The position numbers were made by a program, and so were the translations under genes. Below the pieces are notes generated by a model, which saw nothing but the letters and a program-made list of their open reading frames with translations, was not told the origin of the DNA and ran no database searches. Shown piece by piece: positions 1 through 20,930 of a stretch of 64,000 nucleotides of DNA; position 1 is the stretch's first letter, and each line of letters starts with the position of its first letter. This stretch comes from Antedon mediterranea (Eukaryota > Animalia > Echinodermata), in assembly GCF_964355755.1 (NCBI RefSeq), contig NC_092678.1:20291365-20355364 (forward strand), given 5' to 3'.

Positions 1-249
1 ATGTAAATCAGCTGGTTGAAATGCATGGTTGACCCCACCAGGATAGGCTAGTTAGCTCACTTGATGTCTGGACCCCATGTAGGAAACATGCTTGATGCAT
101 AAGAGTACCCTGTACTATAAACAGTATTTACCCTAGAGTGGTACTGGACATTGAGTCTCTGTAGTGGTTTAGGTACTGCGGGACTGAATAAGGTGAGTGT
201 ATTTGCTTGCTTTAGTAGGCCATTTCAGTGCTAGCCTAAAATCACAACA
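1..249 (+). repeat. 5' LTR (partial)
   Basis: Matches 3096-3344 with no difference seen; ends ...TCACAACA. Confidence 0.95.
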
Positions 250-250
250 T

Positions 251-264
251 TGGCGCTGCGAGCA
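251..264 (+). promoter_or_regulatory. Primer-binding site, probably tRNA-Ser
   Basis: TGGCGCTGCGAGCA, 1 nt after the LTR. Its reverse complement TGCTCGCAGCG-CCA resembles eukaryotic tRNA-Ser 3' ends. Confidence 0.75.
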
Positions 265-1407
265 AAAGCTCGGAAATCTTTTTTTTTGGTGGGGAGGCGG
301 GTGCCTTGATTGCCAGCTGGCATTCTTAACGTGATCGGGTTGATTGCGAGGTATTTCGTCCTCTGCTGAAACTATTAACTTATTGTACTTACGGTGCATT
401 TGTTAGTTTATTGAAGTCGATATCTTTATTGAAGATTACAACATACCGGTAAAGTTAATCACGCAGTATTGTGGCATTTGGATACTTGCTGATTAGCGTA
501 TCGACGGGGTAGTCGATGCGTACCGGGAGTTGTATTTATTTTGCTGTAGTTGAAGGATTAGTGGGCAGTTTACTAGGCCGTATCACCTGGTGGGATACTA
601 GGCGTGGCCGTTGAACTGAGTGGCACCACTAATTTTAACTTTGATTATATACTGGCTGTGCGTAATATATTGTGTTAACTTCACAGTGGCATTACCGCTT
701 TCCTTTCTTTGCATCGGGGGAAGGTTTAGTGGTAAGTGTTGTTAAACTGTATCGACGTCTTTTTAATAATCTAGTTGCTTGTTATTGCAGGTTTGCTGGT
801 GCAATATTTTAACTGTATTTGTATCGCCAGCTGCCATTTTGCAATATTTGTGTGCGGGTTATTGCATTGAAGATATTTTATTATACTGGTGTGCTTGTAT
901 TTATTACTACGTCTATCAGTATTTTAATCCATATTGTATTCTATGCTAAATAACATCTGTTATCTCACACTGCAGCTAGTTTTACCACACTGAAGATCGT
1001 AAAGTGTTACTACAACTTTTATTCCGGGCCAGTCTGTTTTCTTCTGGAAAGCTTGAAGACTGTTCACGTGATTTGTGACTTCAACTTCACACGCTGATTA
1101 TCACTGCCTTTCTGTGGAGGGGAGTGGTCTGGTGATCAGTGTTCGTTGAGCATTACCAAGATCTGGATTTGAAGTATCGTCATCATTTGAATGCTGTGCA
1201 ATTGGTGAATGTATCACAAATGTTTTAATAGTTTTATGTCCATTTTAATAGTACAGGCATTGGTATTTTATGGCATTTTACATTCCTAGTTTATACACAG
1301 TATTCATCTTAAACCGGATAAGTACTAGTGGCAGAACATACATTTAGATACATTTTAATGAAAGTCTTTGACCTCTGGCAATACTTTTATATCGTATGTT
1401 TTAAAGG

Positions 1408-2766
1408 ATGCCTCATGTTGCAATAAATTTCTGGACAGAGCCGGAGCTCGTCCATCTACTAGGAAAGAGAGCTAGGAAAATTACTGATTGGAGGTCCAAA
1501 TTTGGAAATATTAGAGCCTGTGACTTAGAATATTTAACTGGAATCAAGTGCTTGTCATCCAAAACGACTCGCTGGGATTTCACACCGAATCCTCAATTAG
1601 TGAGTAGTTGGGTTCAGAACACTAGCACTCCTCAGTTGTTCCATGCAGCACAAGTTCCATTTGGAACTTATTCTGGTGATTTACCTGGTGGTAGTTTCTC
1701 ATGGAGACACACCAGTACCAACCAACCTAGTTCTGACCACAGAGAAAAGACGGATTCAGGTTGTAGGAATACTCACTATAGGTATGCAACCAAAGCAGAA
1801 TGTCAACCAATATCTGAACTGTTAGCTTTAGACTCTAGTCTTAATGTACGGGGTCACCATTGCACTAAAGGTAGTAAAACCTCAAAAACTAGATCTGTGT
1901 CTAAGCTTTGTAGATTACTGACAGAGGATTGTTTCAGTGACTCTTCTAGTAGCTCTAGTCTTATGGACTCCAGCTCTAGTAATGATGAGAGTTGTACAAG
2001 TGACGAAGATAGTGATCAGGATATGGCTTATGGTAAATATTCTACGAGTGTTCAATCTAGAAGACGACACTCGCATAGGCATTCCCAACAATCACAAAAA
2101 CTATTGAGACAAAAAGACATTCCCAAGTCTCTAACTTTTAATGGCTGGGATGATGACTGGTATCCTTTTAAGAAACGGTTCAGATCTTTCGCAAAGGCGC
2201 AGAACCTTACCACCGGGGATAGTAACAATGCCCTTTTTTGGTGTATGGAGGGACCTGCGGCGAAGTTCTTAACCAATCTTTTAAGGATGGAGCCAACATT
2301 AGACTTCAAAGAGATGATGGATGTCCTCAGTGTACGTTTCGGAGACGGTGAGCGGTCTCTAAAACAGGAACGACACGAAGCTATAGAAAAATGGGGACGT
2401 AGAGTCATGATGGTAACCGAGAAAGCCTGTAGTGATCTACCTAGATCTAGAGTGCAAAAGCTACAGGTGGAATGGTTCTGCACTGGGTGTCACGACAAGG
2501 AGGCTGGTGAGTATGTTTCACGGAAACATTGTGCTACTATCACCAAAGCTCTTGAAAAATATAGGAGGTTTGACTGTCGCCGCAAAGGGTTGTACAGAGA
2601 GCATGGGAGAAAAGTCAGAAATGATTTAATGCCCCGTACTAGGTCTATGACTTATACTCTCTGTAGCTCAACCCATCATCACATATCCTCACACGAAGAT
2701 GAAGCCGAAAACCATTATCAAGCTTCTGAAATCTGGAGTAGGCCGAAACTGGAAACCTCAACCTAA
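1408..2766 (+). CDS. Gag-like protein (452 aa): N-terminal HhH-like segment, Ser/acidic linker, retrotransposon capsid-like domain
   Basis: Intact ORF between PBS and PPT. PKSLTFNG..DWYPFKKRF...L.WCMEGPA..F...L..RFG is a Gypsy capsid-type pattern. Confidence 0.8.
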   Translation: MPHVAINFWTEPELVHLLGKRARKITDWRSKFGNIRACDLEYLTGIKCLSSKTTRWDFTPNPQLVSSWVQNTSTPQLFHAAQVPFGTYSGDLPGGSFSWRHTSTNQPSSDHREKTDSGCRNTHYRYATKAECQPISELLALDSSLNVRGHHCTKGSKTSKTRSVSKLCRLLTEDCFSDSSSSSSLMDSSSSNDESCTSDEDSDQDMAYGKYSTSVQSRRRHSHRHSQQSQKLLRQKDIPKSLTFNGWDDDWYPFKKRFRSFAKAQNLTTGDSNNALFWCMEGPAAKFLTNLLRMEPTLDFKEMMDVLSVRFGDGERSLKQERHEAIEKWGRRVMMVTEKACSDLPRSRVQKLQVEWFCTGCHDKEAGEYVSRKHCATITKALEKYRRFDCRRKGLYREHGRKVRNDLMPRTRSMTYTLCSSTHHHISSHEDEAENHYQASEIWSRPKLETST

Positions 2767-3043
2767 CTCACATCAATATAAACCTGCCAAATGGTTGCAT
2801 TACTTTTGCTCGTGGCAATGTAATGTACATTTGTTGAACTCGGGTTGATCTTGGAAGTTGCTGCAGATGGTAAGTATAGTGATGCAGGAGCTGATATCTG
2901 TACATCAGTATGCCTCCTGAGCTTCACACTTACCATGATGATGTAGAAGAAGACGTACAATACCCACATTTCAGGGAGTTTCCCCGGTGTATTCAAGCTA
3001 GTGTGAGAAAGGTGGAATGCTTCCCTTTTAGAATGGGGAGGTG

Positions 3044-3344
3044 TGTTGTGAAAGGGGTCTCACGCTTGAATACCCTGTCCAGTTTGCTCATTTGCATGTA
3101 AATCAGCTGGTTGAAATGCATGGTTGACCCCACCAGGATAGGCTAGTTAGCTCACTTGATGTCTGGACCCCATGTAGGAAACATGCTTGATGCATAAGAG
3201 TACCCTGTACTATAAACAGTATTTACCCTAGAGTGGTACTGGACATTGAGTCTCTGTAGTGGTTTAGGTACTGCGGGACTGAATAAGGTGAGTGTATTTG
3301 CTTGCTTTAGTAGGCCATTTCAGTGCTAGCCTAAAATCACAACA
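3044..3344 (+). repeat. 3' LTR (301 bp)
   Basis: 8-bp terminal inverted repeat TGTTGTGA/TCACAACA, preceded by the PPT. Confidence 0.95.
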
Positions 3345-4009
3345 CTATGGATGTGGTCAAAGAATATATATGTCATGTGGTGCATGTGGAGGTGTACAGT
3401 CTGTACTGTGCTGCTAGCAAAGAACTTATAACACAAGAATCTCCTGTTCTTCAATTTGCATTCAAAACACAGTATCGGAAGTACAGGGTTAAAAGGTCAA
3501 ACTGGGCGACGCCATTTCACAGCATGGAGCAGCGCCCCCTCCAAACTAGGAAGTCAATTACTCCATCCCCTATAGTATTAGCAGATCCCCTCTATGATTT
3601 TGACTTTCTAATTTGATGCGGGCGCCCTACTCCATGGCTCACAATATGGCGCCACCCATAGCTCTATTCTATCCCACAATGCCTTTCGAAATTGTTGCGC
3701 GCTTCGTACGAACAGGAGATTCTTGTGTTATAAGTTCTTTGCTGCTATGTACACCAACACACGTCACACACGTCACCGCCAAAAAAGGGGTTATTCCAAA
3801 TTAGAACGAGTGTTGACTTCTCTTTGGAAGAATACAGTACTAGGCCTAGGTCAGGTAGGCCTAGTAAGTTAACTAAGTAAGATCGTTTAATAAATTGTAG
3901 ATATTTTCAATTTGAAAATAATTAAATATTATTCGTTATATCGTTTTAATTATTCATTTACAATTCTATTTTTTTGCAATTATGTGGACTACACTTTTTA
4001 ATGCCACAT

Positions 4010-5004: not shown

Positions 5005-5246
5005 TTTATATTGAAAGTTGGAAGGGTTTTGAATTAAATCAATAAGCATTTTTGCTGTTTGTATCCCATGTCACGTACACAATTGATCAACCATAAACTT
5101 TGGTATGAAAAATCTTCTATCTTCAAATGTTTTATGTTATAAAACATTGGAGAACATTTTCAACAATTTTTATTTAGAATTAACATTAAAGTTCCTGGTT
5201 ATGCATTATTTCTGTGAGTTCTAAAAACAAATTCTAATTATATTGT

Positions 5247-5691
5247 GTCGTGAGGTGGTTTCCCGAAAGATTGTAAAATCAAAACGGTACTGGGTATGAC
5301 CAACTAGCGTTATTGTCACCGGCTAGTCATCCATTCATAGAAGTACTAATGTAGTAGCCTACCTGTACGGTGACCATAGAATGTGACCCGAGGCATGACT
5401 AACTACGACTTTTAGATGATAGAAAGTTGAGAAAAATTGTTACGAGTAGTTTTACGACATGAAGATGTTTATGAAATTATGTTAAAGATGTAAAAACATA
5501 TTACATTAGGTATATAAACAGTAATGAGTGTTAGTAAAAATAATATAATGTAAAAAAGATATAAGGAAGAAAAGCAAAGAGATTATGGAGCGGCTGTACC
5601 TGAATATACAATATAAATATTGTAAGGTTAAAAACTAGAAATTTAGGCGATCTTGTCAAAGGTCAAGCGCCTTCAGCCTGCCACGTTTCGA
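5247..5691 (-). repeat. PLE pseudo-LTR, 3' copy
   Basis: Appears identical to 9363-9807 (offset 4116). Confidence 0.95.
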
Positions 5692-5720
5692 TATTCAATA
5701 TTGAACTTGACCTGACGTGG
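5645..5720 (-). ncRNA. Predicted non-circularly permuted hammerhead ribozyme
   Basis: Minus strand: CCACG-UC^AGGUCAAG ... AUC-GAAA-CGUGG ... AGGCG-CUUGACCU-UUGACAA-GAU-CGCCU. Stems I, II and III all pair. The core is conserved with a compensatory U3-A8 pair. Confidence 0.75.
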
Positions 5721-6585
5721 TTCCACAATATCTTTATATGAAAAATTTGTAGAGTGGATAGAAAATTATTAAAATGGTTATTGTTAAATTGTTTTTAAAA
5801 TACGTTGTTCGTTTTAATGTTAAACAATGTTTAAATTTTCTCACCTTTTTAGAAAAAATATTATTATTTCAATATGAAGAAGATTGAAAGTTTATGTTAC
5901 GTACTTGTTTCTGTGTATACAGGACGCTAAAAAATTATTAAAATTATTATGCCTAGGCCTAGGCCTAACTAGCCTAGCCTAGATAGGATTTACGTAATAT
6001 GATTATATTTTATAGTTTAACTGAATGTAATTTAAAGTAGAATTTATTTAGTTCTAAATATAATATTAATTAGTCTTACCTTGTGTACAAAGCTATTTGG
6101 TTTGGATTTTATAGAAAAAATGACAATGTCGGAGCTGTAGAAAATTCAATATGTTTTTACCGACCTTTCCTTAGTGAGAATGTTATGTTTGAAAGTAACA
6201 GGTTCGAATGTTTGCTATGCGCGTGTGTTAGAACGCGTTATTGAAATTGACGCGGGTGTTTATGATTACGCGTAAAGGTCTGTATTCTTATTATTAATTA
6301 ACGTACAGGGACAATTTTCATTTAAAAATTTTGTCAAAAGGTAAATTTATGTCAATAAAAATGGGTGCTTATAATATATTTAATCTGGTATAAAAACATT
6401 TTATAAGTCATAAAAAATTCAAAATTAATGAATAAATATAGAGGTAAACATAATGGTACAGTATGCACAACGATTTATTTGACAAAATAAAGGTGTTTAT
6501 AATACAAGAATATTATAAAATACAACAATTTAGTATTAAAATATTATAATAATTAATAATATATAAATTATACAAAACTTTTAAT

Positions 6586-9081
6586 TTAATATGTTTGATA
6601 GGTTGCCAGTTTGTTGTGCAATTGTTTATTAGTGCAGCATATTTGTTTAATCTTTCTGTCGTTATAAAAAACGTATTGTATTTTATACTTGTTTTTGAGT
6701 AGGTGTTTGTGGTTATTTATAATACCTTGCATAATATTTGTTTTATCTGTGGTTTTATCAAATTTGGTTTTAATACAAATTGTTTGTTTATTAATATTCT
6801 TTGTGATCTTTTCTTTGGGGTTCTGTTGAAAATGTGTCAAATGTTTATTTATGAATTTATGGCTGTAACCTATTTTCTTTAGTCGTAAAGAGAAGAGGGA
6901 GGTGATGTGTAGATATTCTTTTATATTACATGAAAGTCGGTTATAACGATGGGACTCTGTTTTGATAATACCTTTAAAAATTGATGGGTTATGGTTGAAT
7001 GTTTTATGAATGTATGTATATTTTTGGTATGGTTTTTGATATATTGAGTAGTGTATTTTGTTTGTTGTTAGTGTTGTATAGTTGATGGAAATGTGTGTGT
7101 CCAAATATATCATGTTAGTAGTATTAAAAGTAAAGTTGAGTGGAATATTGTGTGGGTAGATGTTGGATATGGATTTAATAAGGTCAAGAGAATTAATTTT
7201 AGGGTTGCTGATAATTAGTGCGCCGTCGTCTATGAATCGGGTAAATAAGAAGTTGGAAGGGTTTAGTTGAAATCTTTGTTTTAATGTGGTGAGGAAGTTT
7301 AATTCTTTCAAAAGGAGGGTAAGATTAGCGATTTGGGCGCTGTGGTAAGACCCCATAATGATTCCCTGTATTTGCTTATAAAAATAAGGTCCGGCTTTGA
7401 AGTATGCGTTTTTATTAATTATGTTGTTTAATTTTGTGAGATATAATTTGGTTTCATTGTTAACATTTAAGAGGTCGCAGGCATTTGTGATGGTGTCATT
7501 GGTATCTTGTATAGTGATGTTAGTGTAAAGGCTTTCGAAGTCCCAGGAAATAAAGAAATTTGTGTCGGAGAATTTTGTGTTAATTAATTGTGTTTTGGAA
7601 ACAAATTCGTTTGAGTTTTCAATAATGGGAAAGGGTACATTTTTGTCATAGAACATATCTTTAATTTTGTTTATAATTAATTTAAGATGGTGGCCTAGTG
7701 TTTTGGATAGGGGGGTAGTAGTCCAGCTATGGGCTGTAATAATTGGTCGTCCTTTAAGGTCTTGTTCTGTTTCGGGTGAGGGTGGTTTTTTAAGTTTATG
7801 GGGTTTGGGTAGAATCTTGAGGGTAGGTAATTGTAATTTGGAGTTATCGATCCAGTTTGTAATTTGGTTGATTTCTTTGATAAAATCGTGGTCTTTGATG
7901 TCTGTATCATTAATTAGTTTAATCATGTCATTTCGAACTTTAAGTTTTAATTTTGTTATATAATTTCTTTCATCAATTTTAGGATCGACTTTTTGATATA
8001 TTTCGTTGTTAAGTTGTCTATCATATTCTTGTTTGTACCATTTTGTAGTATTAAGGCATAAACCTAAATTCTTGTCTGATGTTTGTATTATTATTTCTGG
8101 GTTTTTGGCAAGTGTTTTCAATTGTTTGAGTTGTGATTTAGTTGTATTTCTTTTATCTATACATCTAAAATTTTCGATGCATTCTTGGTTTAGTTCTTCG
8201 ATATTGTTGTAGCAGAAAGCAGTTGTGTTTGGTTTAATGTGAGGATGTGTAATTAATTCATGGAAAAGTGTTTTGTGTTTATTATGTATAGGCAATGAGT
8301 GTGGTTTAGTGTGAGTTGTTTTGATTTTATGCTTGTAAATCTCATGTTTCAACATTGTTGTAAAGGAGGACTTAATATCGTTATGTAGTTCTGTTTTAAT
8401 CTGCTGTCCGTTCTTGAAGGTTGTGGGTATAAACGATGGTCCCTTGTTCAATATTGTTTTGGTGTGTTTATTGATTTTAAAGTTAGTAAAATTGTGGAAG
8501 TTCAAATCATCTTTCTTGTTTTCGTTTCTAATTTCGTCTTCCTTCTTTTTAGCATCATAGTTTTTCATAAGTTTTTTAATTAGTATTGTGTGCAAAACAC
8601 TTCTCTGTTGACATAAATTATTTGCATAGTCAAAATCTGAGGTGGTTTTTTTAAAAACGTATTTCTTATTAATTGCATTCTTCTGTTTAATTTCTTCGAT
8701 TGTATCTTTATATTTCTGTAAGATACTTTGTTTCAAGAGTTGTGTTTGTCGGTATCTATGTTTAATAATATCGCTCAATTCTTCCAATGTGTTAATATTG
8801 TCGCTCAATTCGGTGTCCTCAATACTTTCCCCGGTATTTATATTAATGGTATAATTCCTGATTTGGCTGATTTTGTTGTCAACGAATTTTATTTCTACGT
8901 TATGGTTGTTGTTTATTTTGAGTAGGCTAGGTGTCAGTTGTTCTATTTTGTTATAATATCGACTACAGTTAATTATTTCTTCTCTGAAAATATTTTTAGT
9001 CGTCTTGGTATGTATCCTATTCCATTCGTTGATTGTTGTAATTTTCCTAATATCTTTTGGTTTAAATGTTGGATGAACCAT
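6586..9081 (-). CDS. PLE reverse transcriptase (831 aa), no GIY-YIG domain
   Basis: LNKGPSFIP, SDKNLG, GRPII, WDFESLYTNI, QIQGIIMGS..SAQIANL, RFIDDG, YLD and IYQKP...H thumb motifs. The ORF stops just after the thumb. Confidence 0.92.
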   Translation of the reverse strand: MVHPTFKPKDIRKITTINEWNRIHTKTTKNIFREEIINCSRYYNKIEQLTPSLLKINNNHNVEIKFVDNKISQIRNYTININTGESIEDTELSDNINTLEELSDIIKHRYRQTQLLKQSILQKYKDTIEEIKQKNAINKKYVFKKTTSDFDYANNLCQQRSVLHTILIKKLMKNYDAKKKEDEIRNENKKDDLNFHNFTNFKINKHTKTILNKGPSFIPTTFKNGQQIKTELHNDIKSSFTTMLKHEIYKHKIKTTHTKPHSLPIHNKHKTLFHELITHPHIKPNTTAFCYNNIEELNQECIENFRCIDKRNTTKSQLKQLKTLAKNPEIIIQTSDKNLGLCLNTTKWYKQEYDRQLNNEIYQKVDPKIDERNYITKLKLKVRNDMIKLINDTDIKDHDFIKEINQITNWIDNSKLQLPTLKILPKPHKLKKPPSPETEQDLKGRPIITAHSWTTTPLSKTLGHHLKLIINKIKDMFYDKNVPFPIIENSNEFVSKTQLINTKFSDTNFFISWDFESLYTNITIQDTNDTITNACDLLNVNNETKLYLTKLNNIINKNAYFKAGPYFYKQIQGIIMGSYHSAQIANLTLLLKELNFLTTLKQRFQLNPSNFLFTRFIDDGALIISNPKINSLDLIKSISNIYPHNIPLNFTFNTTNMIYLDTHISINYTTLTTNKIHYSIYQKPYQKYTYIHKTFNHNPSIFKGIIKTESHRYNRLSCNIKEYLHITSLFSLRLKKIGYSHKFINKHLTHFQQNPKEKITKNINKQTICIKTKFDKTTDKTNIMQGIINNHKHLLKNKYKIQYVFYNDRKIKQICCTNKQLHNKLATYQTY

Positions 9082-9362
9082 ATTCTGTGGGTGTTTAAAT
9101 AGTTATGTAATATTAGGCTTAAAATAAATATTGTGTGTTGAAAAATTATATTGTGAAACATGATGTTTATGCTATGAATGTCGTACGTAGGTAAAGGAAT
9201 AGAAAAAACAAGGATCTAAATGTAGAAAAATGAAAAAAGTAGTATAGAATGTAGAAATAGGAAAAGTTTGTTAATAAAAAGAATAGATTTTGAATGTGAG
9301 GAATGACTTATGACGGTTAGATCCCACTAGAGATCTATGTCGGCTCCTAGGCCTGTAAAATC

Positions 9363-9807
9363 GTCGTGAGGTGGTTTCCCGAAAGATTGTAAAATCAAAA
9401 CGGTACTGGGTATGACCAACTAGCGTTATTGTCACCGGCTAGTCATCCATTCATAGAAGTACTAATGTAGTAGCCTACCTGTACGGTGACCATAGAATGT
9501 GACCCGAGGCATGACTAACTACGACTTTTAGATGATAGAAAGTTGAGAAAAATTGTTACGAGTAGTTTTACGACATGAAGATGTTTATGAAATTATGTTA
9601 AAGATGTAAAAACATATTACATTAGGTATATAAACAGTAATGAGTGTTAGTAAAAATAATATAATGTAAAAAAGATATAAGGAAGAAAAGCAAAGAGATT
9701 ATGGAGCGGCTGTACCTGAATATACAATATAAATATTGTAAGGTTAAAAACTAGAAATTTAGGCGATCTTGTCAAAGGTCAAGCGCCTTCAGCCTGCCAC
9801 GTTTCGA
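9363..9807 (-). repeat. PLE pseudo-LTR, 5' copy
   Basis: Begins inside the ribozyme (UC-GAAA), 22 nt downstream of the equivalent predicted cleavage site. Confidence 0.95.
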
Positions 9808-9877
9808 GGCTCCTATGACACTGTTTCTTACTACTATTGTTTTTTCTTTTTTATTTTAGAAATGGAGACAAGATAAC

Positions 9878-11646
9878 ATGGCTAAATCAGGTAGAACTTA
9901 ATGGAATTCAAAGACTATGAAGCTTGATTTTACAATCATTGCATATAACATTCACCCTTCCTTACCTTACAGATGATAGAATAATGTGTAATCATTTCAG
10001 ACCAAGAAAATAATTATTTGCCATTACAAACTCTACTATGTTTGCATTTGCCTCATAATTTGCATTCAGAGTATATTTTGCTAAAGGATAACCAAGATTG
10101 TTTCTACTTTACATACTGTATTTATAAATAAAGTTGTTTCTGTTGTTATTGTTTTTTAAGAAATATTTGTGTTCAAACAAGTTGGTATGGTATTTTACAT
10201 TTTTGTTTTCTTTTTTTCCTAGAAATATCTGGCAAATCTTTTAACCAGACTTTGGTATGTTTTTCAACTTGGTATGATGACCGATCCCTCATCACAAAAC
10301 TGAAAGTTTTGTACCAAGGTTATATTGCAGATGCTGACATACACAATGCCACTATGACGATGGACTTAATGAAACAATTGACGAATTCTGGACATCTTAG
10401 TTCAAAAAATCTAACCCTTCTATATGATACCATAAAAGCTACTAAACAGTTTGGTATTGTAGACGAGCTTCGAGTTCACATACCAGTACCATCATTTTCT
10501 AGTGCTAAAGAGATGGTTATTTCAAAATTCAGTCATCATCAACAAAAAGTTCTGAATTTGGGTAATGTTCTAATAGAGGAGGATGTAATAAAAATTGACA
10601 ATATTTACAATGATCCACCAAAGAAGTATAAAGATGGATGGAACCTTATACTTCATCTACAACACAAAACCATCATATGTGAAGCAAAAATGGATGAATT
10701 TGTGGAGACCTTAAAAATTCTTAAAATTCCCCATGCTGTGGACATTTTTACTAAAGGTATATAGCCTACATTAATTCATTTTCAATAGTACATTTTGCAA
10801 TGTAGCACTACTGTATTAGAAAGATCTTAAATTGATGCAGGCCAAAGCATAGTATTTGATACTACAGTTAAATGAAATGTATTATCAGGTAGTATAAAAT
10901 ATTAGGAAGTTGAAATATTTAAACTCTACTGAAATTTAATATAGAAAGACACAATGTATCAAGTGGAACACAATATTGATTAGTTTTGTAGCATACAAAT
11001 TAAATAATGTTTGCTACAACAAGACATAATATTTACTATTATTTTAAAACCGTTTTCAATGAAATTCAACTCTTGCATTTATAGTCATTGTTTGCTAAAT
11101 AATGATTGAACTGTGATAAATTGTCAATTTTCTAAATATGTCTTTTTCAGCCATTAATGTATTTTTCTATTATTATTAAAGAGGCTCAATTACACTTAAC
11201 TCTGAAACGTAAACGAGGACGATCTAACTCAAGCTATCAACCTCCTTCGTCATCAGAAAGAAACCTTGATGAGTATCAACCTCCTCCTGGCCAAAGTACA
11301 AATCCTGTTGAGATTTTAGATCATCTTAACCAACATAAAGGCAATCTGAAGTTTGATGATGCATTGGAATTTACTGATAAACTACAAGAGCTTGTTAACT
11401 ACTACAGTCAGCGTGGTGTAAAATTAACCCTCATGACAGAAGGATGTATAGTCTTCCACTTATCTGTCATTGATAAATATGCGCTGATAAATTTACGTGA
11501 AATCCATGATAGTGGACAACTTTTGAAAGACTTAGCTGAAATATTAGTAGCAGAGGAAAATCAGCAGAAATTGTTTCAAAAGGAATGGATCACACACATT
11601 GATCAACTTGAATACCACAATGGACTTTGCATGCTCATAAAAAAAG
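9878..11646 (+). CDS. Host gene 5' exons: start exon 9878-9890, tandem death-effector-domain exon 10223-10756, TRADD-N-like exon 11182-11646
   Basis: Canonical AG/GT sites, all phase 1, join in frame: MAKSEISGKSFNQTLVCFSTWY...DLMKQL..SG.LS..NL.LL (DED), then a second helical repeat. GCIVFHL.....AL..L...HDSGQL...L..IL is TRADD-N-like. Confidence 0.78.
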
Positions 11647-12253
11647 GTAAACATGTTTTATCATGATCTCTATATATACTGGGTTTATCATCTAATTTTT
11701 CCCCCGAAGTACCCTTTCAGACACATTTGTAATTAGGTTATATGCATTATCATGCATATAACATATAATATTGACTATAACCTTATTGATTTTGTCAGAA
11801 TCTTTATTTATTTATTCTTTCCTTAGCACTATTTTGTTCGTCAATTATCTTGAGATCAATTTCATCAGCTAAGTCAATTTTTCAAAGTATATTCTTTATG
11901 GCCAGGAATCGATGTGGTTATGTTTTCACGATGCGCAATCAAAAATTACGCGATATTAACGAAATCACGTTTGGAATCATATCTTCACAAGCATGTATCA
12001 TAATCAAATTTGGTACTCATAAATTTCATGGCATATATTTTTTTTTTATTCGATCGAAAACAACAGCAATAATTACCGCCACTAACAGGTTTGATACAGA
12101 CAAAGACAGGACTGTTTAAAGCACCTTGATTGGTCCTAACATTGATCAAGGGCTTCTCTCGTCCAATGCCCACTGTTATGTTTGTGGGTTATGATGAAGA
12201 CAACGTTTTTTATCGTGCAGAATCAATCACACGGACACTCGTGGTTATGCGCC

Positions 12254-17360: not shown

Positions 17361-20300
17361 TGATAAAGAAATTAAGAAGAAAAATATCGGTGATTATTAA
17401 CACACCTTACTCTAGTAAAGCTAGTAAAACGAGAGGCCGAGTAATGAGCAATCTTATAACTATTGAGAATACTAAGTACATGAACATAAACGTTTTTTCG
17501 TGCCCCAAGATTTTGTTAACAATGTAAGGTCAATTAGAAACAAAGTGGATGAATTTGAGGCTACCCTTAGCAAATACAAAATTGACTTGGCAGTTGTAAC
17601 TGAGACGTGGTTAAATGCCGAAACTGAAAATTTAGCAACTATTCCTGGATATCAACATTTCAATAAGATGCGTGTTGGAAGGAAAGGTGGTGGAGTATCT
17701 GTGTACTCAGTTGACAGGCTAATTATGAATCACACTGAACACCATGATCAGTGTAATTTTGAGTGTCTTTGGTGTTGTATTACAATACCCAATAACATCA
17801 GGCGCTTGAAACACTTATATGTTGGTGCGATATATTATCCACCCGCAGCGGCTGGAGCTGAACAACTTGTATCGCATGTGATTGAAACAGTCGACAGGAT
17901 ACGCAGTGCCAACCATGAAGTTCCAATTATAATTCTAGGTGACTTCAACGACCTTAATACTAATGAGCTTTGTGACAATCTTGGCCTAACTCAAGTAGTT
18001 AATTTTCATACACGGAAAGATTCTACACTTGACAAAATTTTTATGAATTACCCTGAATTATATGATGATATACTGTAGTACGGAAAGCACCCATTGGGAG
18101 CAGTGATCACGTCTCGGTGTTAATGAAGCCTATAACTTGTTTACCTAAAAATGATCATTTCGCGGTAAAGATTAGACCTATGAAGGACTCGTCCATGAGG
18201 CAATTTGGCCAGTGGTTAGTTGATTATGAATGGAATAATGTCTACGACCTTATGGATACAAATGATAAAACTGCGATGCTACTGTAGCTACTACTCTACA
18301 AAATGCCTATTATAGTAATTTCCCGACTGAGTTGCTGAAAATGAGGAGTACTGATCACCCATGGCTTACGAAAAGAGTGAAACAACTCATAAAGCAACGA
18401 CAAAAAGCATATGTTAAATTTGGAAAATCTAGCAAGTGGAAAAAACTTCGAAATGGTGTACAAAAAGCGATTATGGACGCGAAAAAATCTTACTACCAAG
18501 ACGCGATTTCTGGCCTTCACAATTCGGACTCCTCCAAATGGCACAAGAATGTTGGAAAACTTTGTAATCTTAATCAGAAGCAGTCATTTAGCATTCCAGG
18601 TCTTAACGAAAAGGAAACCACTGAATCAATTAATCAGCACTTTGCGGATGTCTGTTGCCAATTACCTGCTCTGGACCAAAACAACTTGCCTGCATATCTT
18701 CCATCCTCGCAGCCGCCTCCTGAAATCTATCCTGGACAGGTCCAGAGATTGCTACAATCAATAAAACCCAAAAAGGCAGGACATCCAGAAGACCTGCCTG
18801 CTAAACTTTTAAGAGAATGTGCTTTTGAACTAGCGCCCCCTATAACCAATGTGTTTAACTGCGCCCTAAAAGCAGGTACTTTCCCTGATAGGTGGAAGCA
18901 TGCGACAGTAGTACCTGTCCCTAAAATCAAAGGAGCTAATACCTGTAACGATCTGCGTCCTATTTCACTTACACCCTTATTAGCAAGAACTTTTGAGACT
19001 TTTTTAGTTAATTGGATCATAGAGGACATTAGCGTTAAGCTTGATAGTCGACAATTCGGGAGCCGCAAGGGTGCATCCACCACCCATTACTTAATTAGTT
19101 TAATTGATTCTGTATTGAAGGATACTGATGGTAAACATTGTTATGTTAATTTATGCGCGGTTGATTTTGCTAAAGCCTTTGATCGGGTTGATCATACTAT
19201 AATTATTAACAAATTAATAGATATCGGAGTGAGATCATCCATAATACCCATCATCTGCAGCTTCCTTACTAATAGAGGCATCAATACCAGAGTGGGTAAG
19301 ACCATCTCGGGTACAAGAAAGATCACCTGCGGCGTGCCCCAGACTAATTAATGATGCCAGTCTAGGAAGCTGCAGAAGATGGAAGTATGTGGATGATCTC
19401 ACTCTAGGTGAAGTCGTGAAAAAAAACAATAATTCCCATTTACAGGTCTCCCTTGATGACTTGGATGACTGGTGTAAAGCTAACAATATGTTGCCTAAAC
19501 CGTCTAATGCCATGTTATGACAATTAATTTTTTGCGTAATGCTAGTGAGTTCCAGCCATTCACCCTCAACAATACTATCCTTGAATGTGTTGGCAACCTC
19601 AAACTGTTAGGGGTTACTATTCAAGATAACATGAAATGGGACATGCATGTCACAGACATAGTCTCTAAGGCATCTCGAAAGATGTTTGCTTTATTTGTGA
19701 TGAGGAGGTCTCGCGCGTCTGTGAATGACCTGATCAAGGTGTTCTGTTGCTATATTAGACCTATTCTTGAGTATGCATGCCCTGTGTGGCATGGTGCAAT
19801 TACTAAAAAATTAGCACATAAAATTGAAGCTGTTCAAAAAAGAGCTCTAAGAACTATCCTGGGAAAAAATTATATATCGTACGATTTAGCTTTAGAGGAG
19901 ACGCAACTCCTTTCGCTTGCGGCAAGGAGGGAAAGTCTGGTGCGTTCCTTTGGTCAGGGTCTCATAAAATCGACTTTGCACAGGGATATGCTCCCTCCTT
20001 GCCGCAAGCGAAAATTAAACCTTAGATCCAATGGTGGAAATCTGGAAGTGCCTAAATGCAAAACCGACAGATATAAACGGTCTGCTGTACCGTATATTGT
20101 TAATCTGCTTAACTCGAAATAATTTTTTTTATATAGGATTTTTATAAGAAAATAAATAAATTCATTTAAATTAATACTATTGTATATATTGCTTAAAATA
20201 AATTAAAACCTTGATAAATATTTTTAAAATACTAGATAAATTTTAATGATTAATGTACAGTATATTTATTTTTCTTATGCATTTTGTAAATTGTTTTGTA

Positions 20301-20475: not shown

Positions 20476-20680
20476 CCCACCTTGACCAGAACGTCTGAGG
20501 CAGATACTAGATGCAGGGGCTGCCATATTAAGAGTCAGCAATGCTGATTGTAAACGGGACCCCAGCTCAGTATACAGCAGATTTCCAGATGGTCTCCCAT
20601 CCAAGCTCTAACCACCCCCCGACGCTGCTTAATTTCGGTGATATGACGAGAACCGCTGTTTCAACGTGGTAAAGCCGTAT
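20476..20680 (-). mobile_element. 5S rRNA-derived SINE (SINE3-type) or 5S pseudogene with attached body
   Basis: Minus strand TACGGCTTTACCACGTTGAAA..CGGTTCTCGTC..ATCACCGAAATTAAGC...TGGTTAGAGCTTGGATGGGAGACC is a diverged 5S with box A/C. ~90 nt of GC-richer non-5S sequence follows with no oligo-T terminator. Confidence 0.75.
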
Positions 20681-20930
20681 TTCATCATATGGCAATACAA
20701 TTACGTGCGTAGCGCACATAACGCATGTGTACGCGCGCTTATAATTTTAAAAATAGATTTTCCATGAAATTAAAGTACTTTTCAGGAAATTGTAAGCGTT
20801 TACAAAATTTTTATGATTTTCGCGTTAAACGTTATATGCACTCTTTTTGTTTTACAACCTTTCTAAAATAATTTCATCATATTTTATTCACGTTTTAATT
20901 CGAAATTGCGTTATACGAGCACGTCAAAAG

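Follow-up and report, generated by a model that had tools for sequence, protein, structure and literature searches.

A type-SGC hammerhead motif with a four-way junction in an endonuclease-less Penelope-like element of Antedon mediterranea

Eckert et al. (2023) have split the hammerhead ribozyme into three blocks, S, G and C, and described the type-SGC permutation, in which the blocks follow in the order S-G-C and a helix joins the free sides of stems I and II (PMC10085705). Five published SGC examples cut at the predicted site, with rates of 0.007–0.19 per minute, and every SGC helix was proven by compensatory mutants (PMC10085705). The HRIMA-1 motif comprises 407 sequences and the SGC variants 176. 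In the available text of this source, the SGC data all come from assembled soil metatranscriptomes, that is from RNA (Supplementary Note 1, Table 2), and the words 'Penelope' and 'retrotransposon' appear only within a reference (PMC10085705). Among Penelope elements, type I hammerheads of Schistosoma carry a U3-A8 pair (PMC4209133), and a 2026 paper, in its available part, still terms the DNA-encoded hammerheads of metazoans type I (PMC13725137). In the literature searched, which covers few subscription journals, an SGC hammerhead is reported from no eukaryotic genome and from no retroelement, and no paper since 2021 combines a hammerhead, a four-way junction and a retrotransposon. The block order reported here is thus not new: it is the type-SGC permutation, published so far, in the available text, from soil metatranscriptomes only. 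New in the literature searched are its host, a Penelope-like element of an endonuclease-less clade recently inserted in an animal genome, and a self-complementary hairpin arm, which sits between stems I and II and creates a four-way junction.

The motif lies in a stretch of 64,000 nucleotides of the crinoid genome (contig NC_092678.1, positions 20,291,365 to 20,355,364), hereafter the window. Its parts are listed below from 5' to 3'; L002 and L003 are two metagenome loci that carry a related motif.

5645..5720, minus strand: type-SGC hammerhead with a four-way junction, whole motif of 76 nt, pairs counted by coordinates
5706..5720, minus strand: block S, with the 5' strand of stem III (5720-5715), C17 (5714) and a strand of stem I (5713-5706)
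5694..5705, minus strand: perfect 12-nt palindrome, either a 4-bp junction hairpin arm or a 12-bp intermolecular duplex
5681..5692, minus strand: block G, with a strand of stem II (5692-5690), G12-A13-A14 (5689-5687) and the 3' strand of stem III (5686-5681)
5673..5680, minus strand: variable 8-nt linker (3 nt in L002, 9 nt in L003)
5668..5672, minus strand: 5' strand of the joining helix, which connects stems I and II at their outer ends and corresponds to helix 'I' in Eckert 2023
5650..5667, minus strand: block C, with a strand of stem I (5667-5660), the core U3-U4-G5-A6-C7-A8-A9 (5659-5653) and a strand of stem II (5652-5650)
5645..5649, minus strand: 3' strand of the joining helix

All helix pairs are present (26/26), with every core base in place. 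Stem I (5713-5706/5667-5660), stem II (5692-5690/5652-5650, including G10.1-C11.1) and stem III (5720-5715/5686-5681) are 8, 3 and 6 bp long, all Watson-Crick, with 8/8, 3/3 and 6/6 pairs. The junction hairpin (5705-5702/5697-5694) shows 4/4 pairs inside the perfect 12-nt palindrome, and the joining helix (5672-5668/5649-5645) 5/5. GAAA is found at 5689-5686 and the core UUGACAA at 5659-5653; the cleavage triplet is GUC, with a predicted cut at 5714/5713. The features of a hammerhead core are all found: the 3-8 pair, U4, G5, A6, A9, G12, A13, A14, A15.1-U16.1 and a base other than G at position 17. The 3-8 pair is U-A in the window and C-G in L002 and L003; the U-A version is active in hammerheads. 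Around the four-way junction, the order is stem I, hairpin, an unpaired U, stem II, joining helix and back to stem I. The unpaired U5693 leaves a 1-nt gap in this junction that is absent from L002 and L003. The linker between stems I and II measures 13 nt in the window and 16 and 10 nt in the two relatives, with a hairpin in all three. Together with this S-G linker, the joining helix (5 bp; 4 and 6 bp in the relatives) would hold stems I and II together. The block order S-G-C differs from those of types I, II and III (CGS, GSC and SCG), whose stems do not cross.

A preliminary description of this locus, made from the letters alone, had proposed such a motif, and our analysis bears it out. All of its segments were recovered at their minus-strand coordinates; so were the three paired stems with the GUC triplet, the U3-A8 version of the core's known C3-G8 pair, the strand order that is no circular permutation of types I-III, and the extra helix and palindromic hairpin that close a four-way junction, though with U5693 unpaired. 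Its caution that the topology class might already be known was justified, since the motif matches type-SGC (PMC10085705), and it correctly foresaw that standard type I-III searches would miss it: Rfam at the gathering score gave no match at 5645-5720. It did not mention the lack of an endonuclease in the host, the self-complementarity of the arm in all three examples or the ending of family copies close to the predicted cut.

A descriptor covering all six block orders was run on 150 dinucleotide shuffles of the window. Stems of at least 8, 3 and 5 bp (I, II and III) were reached in 0/150 shuffles, and an equal total stem length in looser form in 7/150. With the fourth helix included, the window scores 52, a value reached by 0/300 shuffles (best 43); likewise, 0/1000 shuffles of L002 and 0/1000 of L003 reach the real score. 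Loose descriptors give 0.8 matches per shuffled window. At E<=1, Rfam searches on 14 of the 56 related loci returned only one tRNA, and no significant match came from a sequence search of the PDB. In viral contigs, three pattern scans picked up at least 171 loci; none of the matches listed folds as SGC. The pseudoknot-free ViennaRNA fold of the motif is ordinary (z -1.40), as would be expected of helices that cross one another, which ViennaRNA cannot draw together. In the nested minimum-energy fold, part of a stem I strand pairs with core bases, which constitutes a competing fold. Pairs of the three ribozymes were counted by coordinates since MAFFT misaligned them. These results confirm that the window motif is a real and complete hammerhead core in scrambled order.

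The two relatives were found among 56 metagenome loci with a related reverse transcriptase (RT), scanned with a loosened descriptor. Earlier descriptors, which demanded the 10.1-11.1 pair, had missed both; after L003 was spotted by eye the descriptor was loosened to allow a stem II mismatch, and L002 then surfaced. Among the 56 loci, scores of at least 49 are found only in the window, L002 and L003, and the next score is 35. RT identity to the window is 29% for L002 and 28% for L003. Both ribozymes lie on the sense strand, at 1077-1146 in L002 (25/26 pairs, ~1640 nt after the stop codon) and at 4272-4351 in L003 (26/27 pairs, 782 nt after it); in the window this distance is 866 nt. Order and junction are the same in both loci, and each of the five helices is built of other letters than in the window. 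The cores read CUGAUGA in L002 and CUGACGA in L003 versus UUGACAA in the window, so the 3-8 pair covaries. Covariation among related elements, a check suggested in the preliminary description, is thus found in two of them; it is seen across three sequences, too few for a covariation statistic. The sole missed pair in L002 and in L003 is 10.1-11.1, which is non-standard (A.C, C.A), and the triplet of L002 is UUU.

A FastTree phylogeny of 65 rows groups the window with L001, L002 and L003 in a clade of 20 rows (support 99). The tree holds no named reference RTs, so this clade carries no clade name, and 20 of the 56 loci were left out for want of an intact RT stretch, among them L008, L020, L031 and L056. 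Two of the four clade loci having a 3' flank show no motif: L001 within a flank of 828 nt, similar to or below the 782-1640 nt of the positives, and L008 within 1111 nt, of which ~640 nt are an inverted-repeat insert. Small type I hammerheads are found in 5 of the 56 loci (L004, L005, L016, L045 and L056), and the four of these present in the tree all fall outside the clade. The SGC form tracks one RT clade. A canonical reading of the motif over tandem copies was rejected: S-G-C repeats never yield the C-G-S order. Nor would tandem type I copies explain how the SGC form arose, as they yield circular orders only. Some further observations were made on these loci. The L002 contig closes on itself, with 127-nt identical ends (1-127 and 6733-6859); its 6732-nt unit, which holds a single ribozyme and a long stretch of non-coding sequence, is probably repeated in tandem. 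At the contig end of L003 (4700-4784), ~380 nt past the ribozyme, CCCTAA-like repeats could be a telomere-like target or a tail. The type I hammerheads at L004:3562 and L005:1006 have a U3-A8 core and lie beside a non-clade RT that likewise shows no C-terminal endonuclease.

The preliminary description had also placed the motif in a Penelope-like element. This holds, as a Penelope-type RT frame lies on the same strand between 445-nt pseudo-LTRs.

5247..9808, minus strand: whole insertion, 4.56 kb, polymorphic
9363..9807, minus strand: upstream pseudo-LTR copy, identical 445 nt
6586..9102, minus strand: Penelope-type RT frame, 838 aa stop to stop, first ATG at 9081, no GIY-YIG
5247..5691, minus strand: downstream pseudo-LTR copy, 445 nt, with 5247 as the sharp 3' end of the element

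The 445-nt repeat is perfect between 5247-5691 and 9363-9807. The upstream pseudo-LTR starts 22 nt inside the predicted cut, so that blocks G and C (9807-9761) are kept and block S is missing. A Pfam search with the RT protein itself gave no match; its 46 homologues carry PF26215, PF28514 and PF00078, and comparison with the GIY-YIG-bearing relative P0045 gave an E value of 9e-17. The usual Penelope-type RT motifs can be read in alignment A1. The element shows these motifs and a thumb, no RNase H or APE domain, a partial tandem arrangement as pseudo-LTRs and no clear target-site duplication, as expected of Penelope-like elements. The RT frame stops 212 aa past the catalytic DD. No YIG-type motif is present in this frame or in the three frames 3' of its stop, nor in any of the 15 testable clade proteins (16 examined). 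The C-terminal GIY-YIG of the EN+ clades (Penelope/Poseidon, Neptune, Nematis, Hydra) is thus absent, as are the marks of Hydra. A Naiad/Chlamys identity was rejected: the protein is without the N-terminal GIY-YIG, the CxC block and DKA, with DKN instead, and has ~55 aa between motifs A and B (compared with the available text of PMC8557442, where an insertion in the fingers is a further mark of Naiad/Chlamys). The RT clade is recognized by DKN, MGSY and an end in LHxKL. Among ESM Atlas clusters, those nearest to it come mostly from rotifers or cnidarians, which is a lead only, and no RT relatives were found in viral or prokaryotic contigs. Another protein of this endonuclease-less clade, P0054, has an N-terminal extension (residues ~15-145) in which motifs like those of OTU-type cysteine proteases were seen by eye.

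In an empty allele, 5246 is linked to 9809 through 7 other letters, which resemble the 3' tip of the element, and no target-site duplication is seen. The window insertion is recent and polymorphic. Run X3 has 13 contigs that stop at 5246 and differ in their flanks, which indicates that the 3' end is fixed and the family dispersed. Telomere attachment of the window copy was rejected, as its flanks are dispersed and no telomeric repeat, in reverse complement either, occurs at 5247-5645. Joints of 6561 to 9366 and of 7653 to 9362 fuse shortened bodies to a fresh 3' end and would fit re-priming or template jumps. The 5' UTR beside the pseudo-LTR (9234-9362) is deeply covered, with loose ends at 9234 and 9273-9285; short non-coding units seem to be rejoined there to ~5745, which could be a retrozyme-like repeat.

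Other features were noted in the window. An LTR element at 1-3361 has 266-nt direct repeats (1-266 and 3096-3361) and a gag-like frame (1405-2766) with no pol, and a MITE-like element at 3416-3743 is bounded by perfect terminal inverted repeats of 34 nt. At 10132-11666, ~400 nt from the 5' end of the Penelope-like element, lie host-gene exons with a weak death effector domain match (PF01335, E 2e-5, below the curated cut-off). A degenerate 5S rRNA-like sequence at 20569-20682 (minus strand, 43 bits) is found near a LINE-type RT region (17476-20122).

To survey family copies in the same organism, contigs of four runs from two samples (X2, X4 and X5 being one sample) were aligned to 5600-5790 at 80% likeness; all runs consist of contigs, and summed depth is no copy number. 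In X4 the summed depth is ~740,000 at 5684-5690 versus 3,400 at 5600-5613; over a wider stretch it is ~266,000 at the 3' tip versus 371 over the ORF's 5' half. Full elements are plainly fewer than short copies with the ribozyme. Flanks drift among family copies and the motif does not, its letters being the same in independent runs. No variant of at least 1% occurs in stems I, II and III or in block C. Those found are at 5669, a CpG site where the change leaves a U.G pair; at 5672-5674, in the outer pair of the joining helix and the linker (5673-5674 at 19-78% of depth); at 5689, a CpG where G12 changes to A in up to 1.3%, such copies being dead; and at 5694 and 5696 in the hairpin, where the palindrome is broken in one X1 contig group at about 5% of depth (4.6%). 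The depth pattern of run X1, tagged 'RNA?', does not differ from that of the other runs, and X1 is therefore uninformative on expression. On the 5' side, loose ends with 3-4 contigs occur at 5695, 5705, 5708, 5710 and 5713, and none at 5714-5742, among the matches listed (24 of 152); those at 5743-5744, also among the matches listed, resemble the window and mark subfamilies. The listed 5' ends of family copies thus lie 0-18 nt inside the predicted cut. This clustering is suggestive only, as it comes from 24 of 152 rows and three runs of one sample. Depth past 5714 is still about a third of the peak, which means that many copies read through the site.

The window ribozyme is probably active. 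The explanation that we consider best, and reasonably likely, is that an SGC hammerhead braced by its junction cuts the element RNA and so sets the template's 5' end. Stems I, II and III would assemble the usual core, with U3-A8 in place of C3-G8, and the four-way junction would keep stems I and II next to each other, substituting for a loop-loop contact. As the predicted cut is near the 5' end of the motif, the downstream RNA would retain block G and block C, knotted into a 5' cap. Reverse transcription would begin at the fixed 3' end (5247) and proceed towards this cap. Cleaved RNA would give copies of ~450-470 nt ending at 5692-5713, which could account for the abundant short copies and the upstream repeat. 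Copies would run on through the ORF if the RNA has escaped cutting at its downstream ribozyme, or has been re-ligated there into a circle of 4116 nt. The locus amounts to a unit of 4116 nt and a further 445 nt, a length that agrees with two routes: copying of a circle for more than one turn, or a linear RNA in which only the upstream ribozyme has cut. The source of the long copies may be a circular RNA or a linear one, with template jumps; a circle-copying model (PMC4209133) and internal initiation (PMC11167929) are both described in the available texts. In the absence of an endonuclease of its own, the element probably inserts at existing DNA breaks by means of short end homology, or uses an endonuclease in trans, a route that we infer from the empty allele.

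An alternative, which we regard as unlikely, is that cleavage occurs only or mainly in a strand-swapped dimer. The self-complementary S-G arm could form an intermolecular duplex, so that block S of one copy would be swapped over and cleaved by the G and C blocks of its partner; the two repeats of a tandem transcript would then be cut together and release unit-length RNA. The arm is self-complementary over its full length in all three examples (12 nt in the window, 16 and 10 nt in the relatives), which would happen by chance with a probability of ~0.001 for three loops of this local composition, a post hoc estimate. The duplex is more stable than the hairpin (-11.2, -29.3 and -8.8 versus 0, -4.9 and 0 kcal/mol, the window first). 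Penelope hammerheads are reported to cleave as dimers (PMC4209133, PMC6765202; available texts), and the palindromic loop III of minimal type I Penelope hammerheads, between blocks G and S, follows the same logic. However, stem III of 6-7 bp is stable in the monomer, the published SGC RNAs cut in cis with a linker of 3-4 nt (PMC10085705), and the hairpin stacks on stem I (-9.1 versus -8.4). Short palindromes also often give rise to hairpins, and the palindrome is broken in the X1 contig group mentioned above. A wider proposal, which we consider rather unlikely, is that an undescribed dispersed endonuclease-less animal Penelope clade has swapped type I for an SGC form with a strand-swapping palindromic arm, the ends of tandem transcripts cutting each other and perhaps re-circularising. 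If strands are swapped, copies that have lost block S and kept G and C, including the upstream repeat, would be trans-acting enzymes against intact elements.

It is distinctly improbable that the fold is conserved without any cutting in vivo, as a ribozyme-derived structure that binds the RT, stops it or stabilises the RNA. This reading would agree with the mismatch that L002 and L003 both have at 10.1-11.1, with the weak triplet (UUU) of L002 and with the competing nested fold, and a strong RNA structure would stop the RT near 5695-5713 without cleavage; metazoan Penelope hammerheads are also poor cutters in vitro (PMC4209133, available text). On the other hand, the catalytic bases are all kept in three sequences with little helix sequence in common, and the outermost clustered 5' end is exactly 5713 among the matches listed. 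Finally, a chance match or an assembly artefact, for which only the yield of loose descriptors on shuffled windows could speak, is practically eliminated by the stricter shuffles (0/300, 0/1000 and 0/1000), by the identical letters in independent runs and by the absence of an SGC fold among the listed viral matches (0/171).

The locus takes non-circularly permuted ribozymes from anonymous soil RNAs to the chromosomes of animals, where the host is known and natural copies are many. It contributes a protein-coding parent, covariation across elements and a self-complementary arm. The four-way junction would be a new natural brace for stems I and II, of use in structure work and design. Since the predicted cut is at the 5' edge of the motif and copies end there, the role of Penelope hammerheads becomes testable: 5'-end formation, circles and dimer control, a long-open question, can be addressed in one 76-nt RNA and by counting copy ends across the genome. 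Standard descriptors and Rfam miss SGC forms, and verdicts of 'no hammerhead' on retroelement clades therefore need rechecking. The locus also draws attention to an endonuclease-less Penelope clade that spreads outside telomeres.

R2 retrotransposons carry an HDV-like ribozyme at their 5' end; its cut frees the template's 5' end, and its pseudoknotted fold stays. The ribozyme described here would work alike, although the HDV-like ribozyme of R2 (named in the available part of PMC6765202) is of an unrelated class and in an unrelated element. With Athena/Coprina and the Terminons, the window element shares a Penelope-type RT without GIY-YIG and a hammerhead near the 3' end (PMC8557442 and PMC6431247, available texts). 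Those elements attach to telomeres via telomeric repeats beside the ribozyme, whereas the window element is dispersed, has no 3' telomeric repeat and carries its ribozyme ~400 nt from the end. Non-LTR retrozymes (bioRxiv 10.64898/2026.07.22.740005) are likewise short non-coding ribozyme-bearing derivatives of Penelope pseudo-LTRs, but are defined, in the available text, by type I hammerheads. The hammerheads of Penelope pseudo-LTRs (PMC4209133, available text) share the position in terminal repeats, the sense strand, many solitary copies, the U3-A8 variant, a palindrome between two blocks (there G and S) and a proposed part in RNA processing and circle formation. They are all of type I (C-G-S), with a cleavage site towards the motif's 3' end and, as a rule, a rudimentary stem III; the window ribozyme, in contrast, has a non-circular order, a full stem III and a predicted cut near the 5' end.

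Among the closest systems is type-SGC itself (PMC10085705, available text), with which the window motif shares the S-G-C order, the crossing stems I, II and III, the fourth helix, the core bases and the predicted cut. It belongs to the topology class of the HRIMA-1 and SGC-variant alignments, not to those sequence families. The published SGC RNAs lie opposite hairpin ribozymes, whereas this one is encoded in the DNA of a retroelement. Their core is CUGAnGA in all but 1 of 583, versus UUGACAA with U3-A8 in the window, and their stems I and II are of ~5 bp each, versus 7-8 bp and 3 bp here. The descriptor of Eckert et al. (CUGAUGA(U)G, linker <=8 nt) would miss the window, L002 and L003. Lastly, published SGC ribozymes have an S-G linker of 3-4 nt and an optional hairpin in the G-C linker (PMC10085705); here, by contrast, a self-complementary hairpin sits in the S-G linker and turns the junction into a four-way one.
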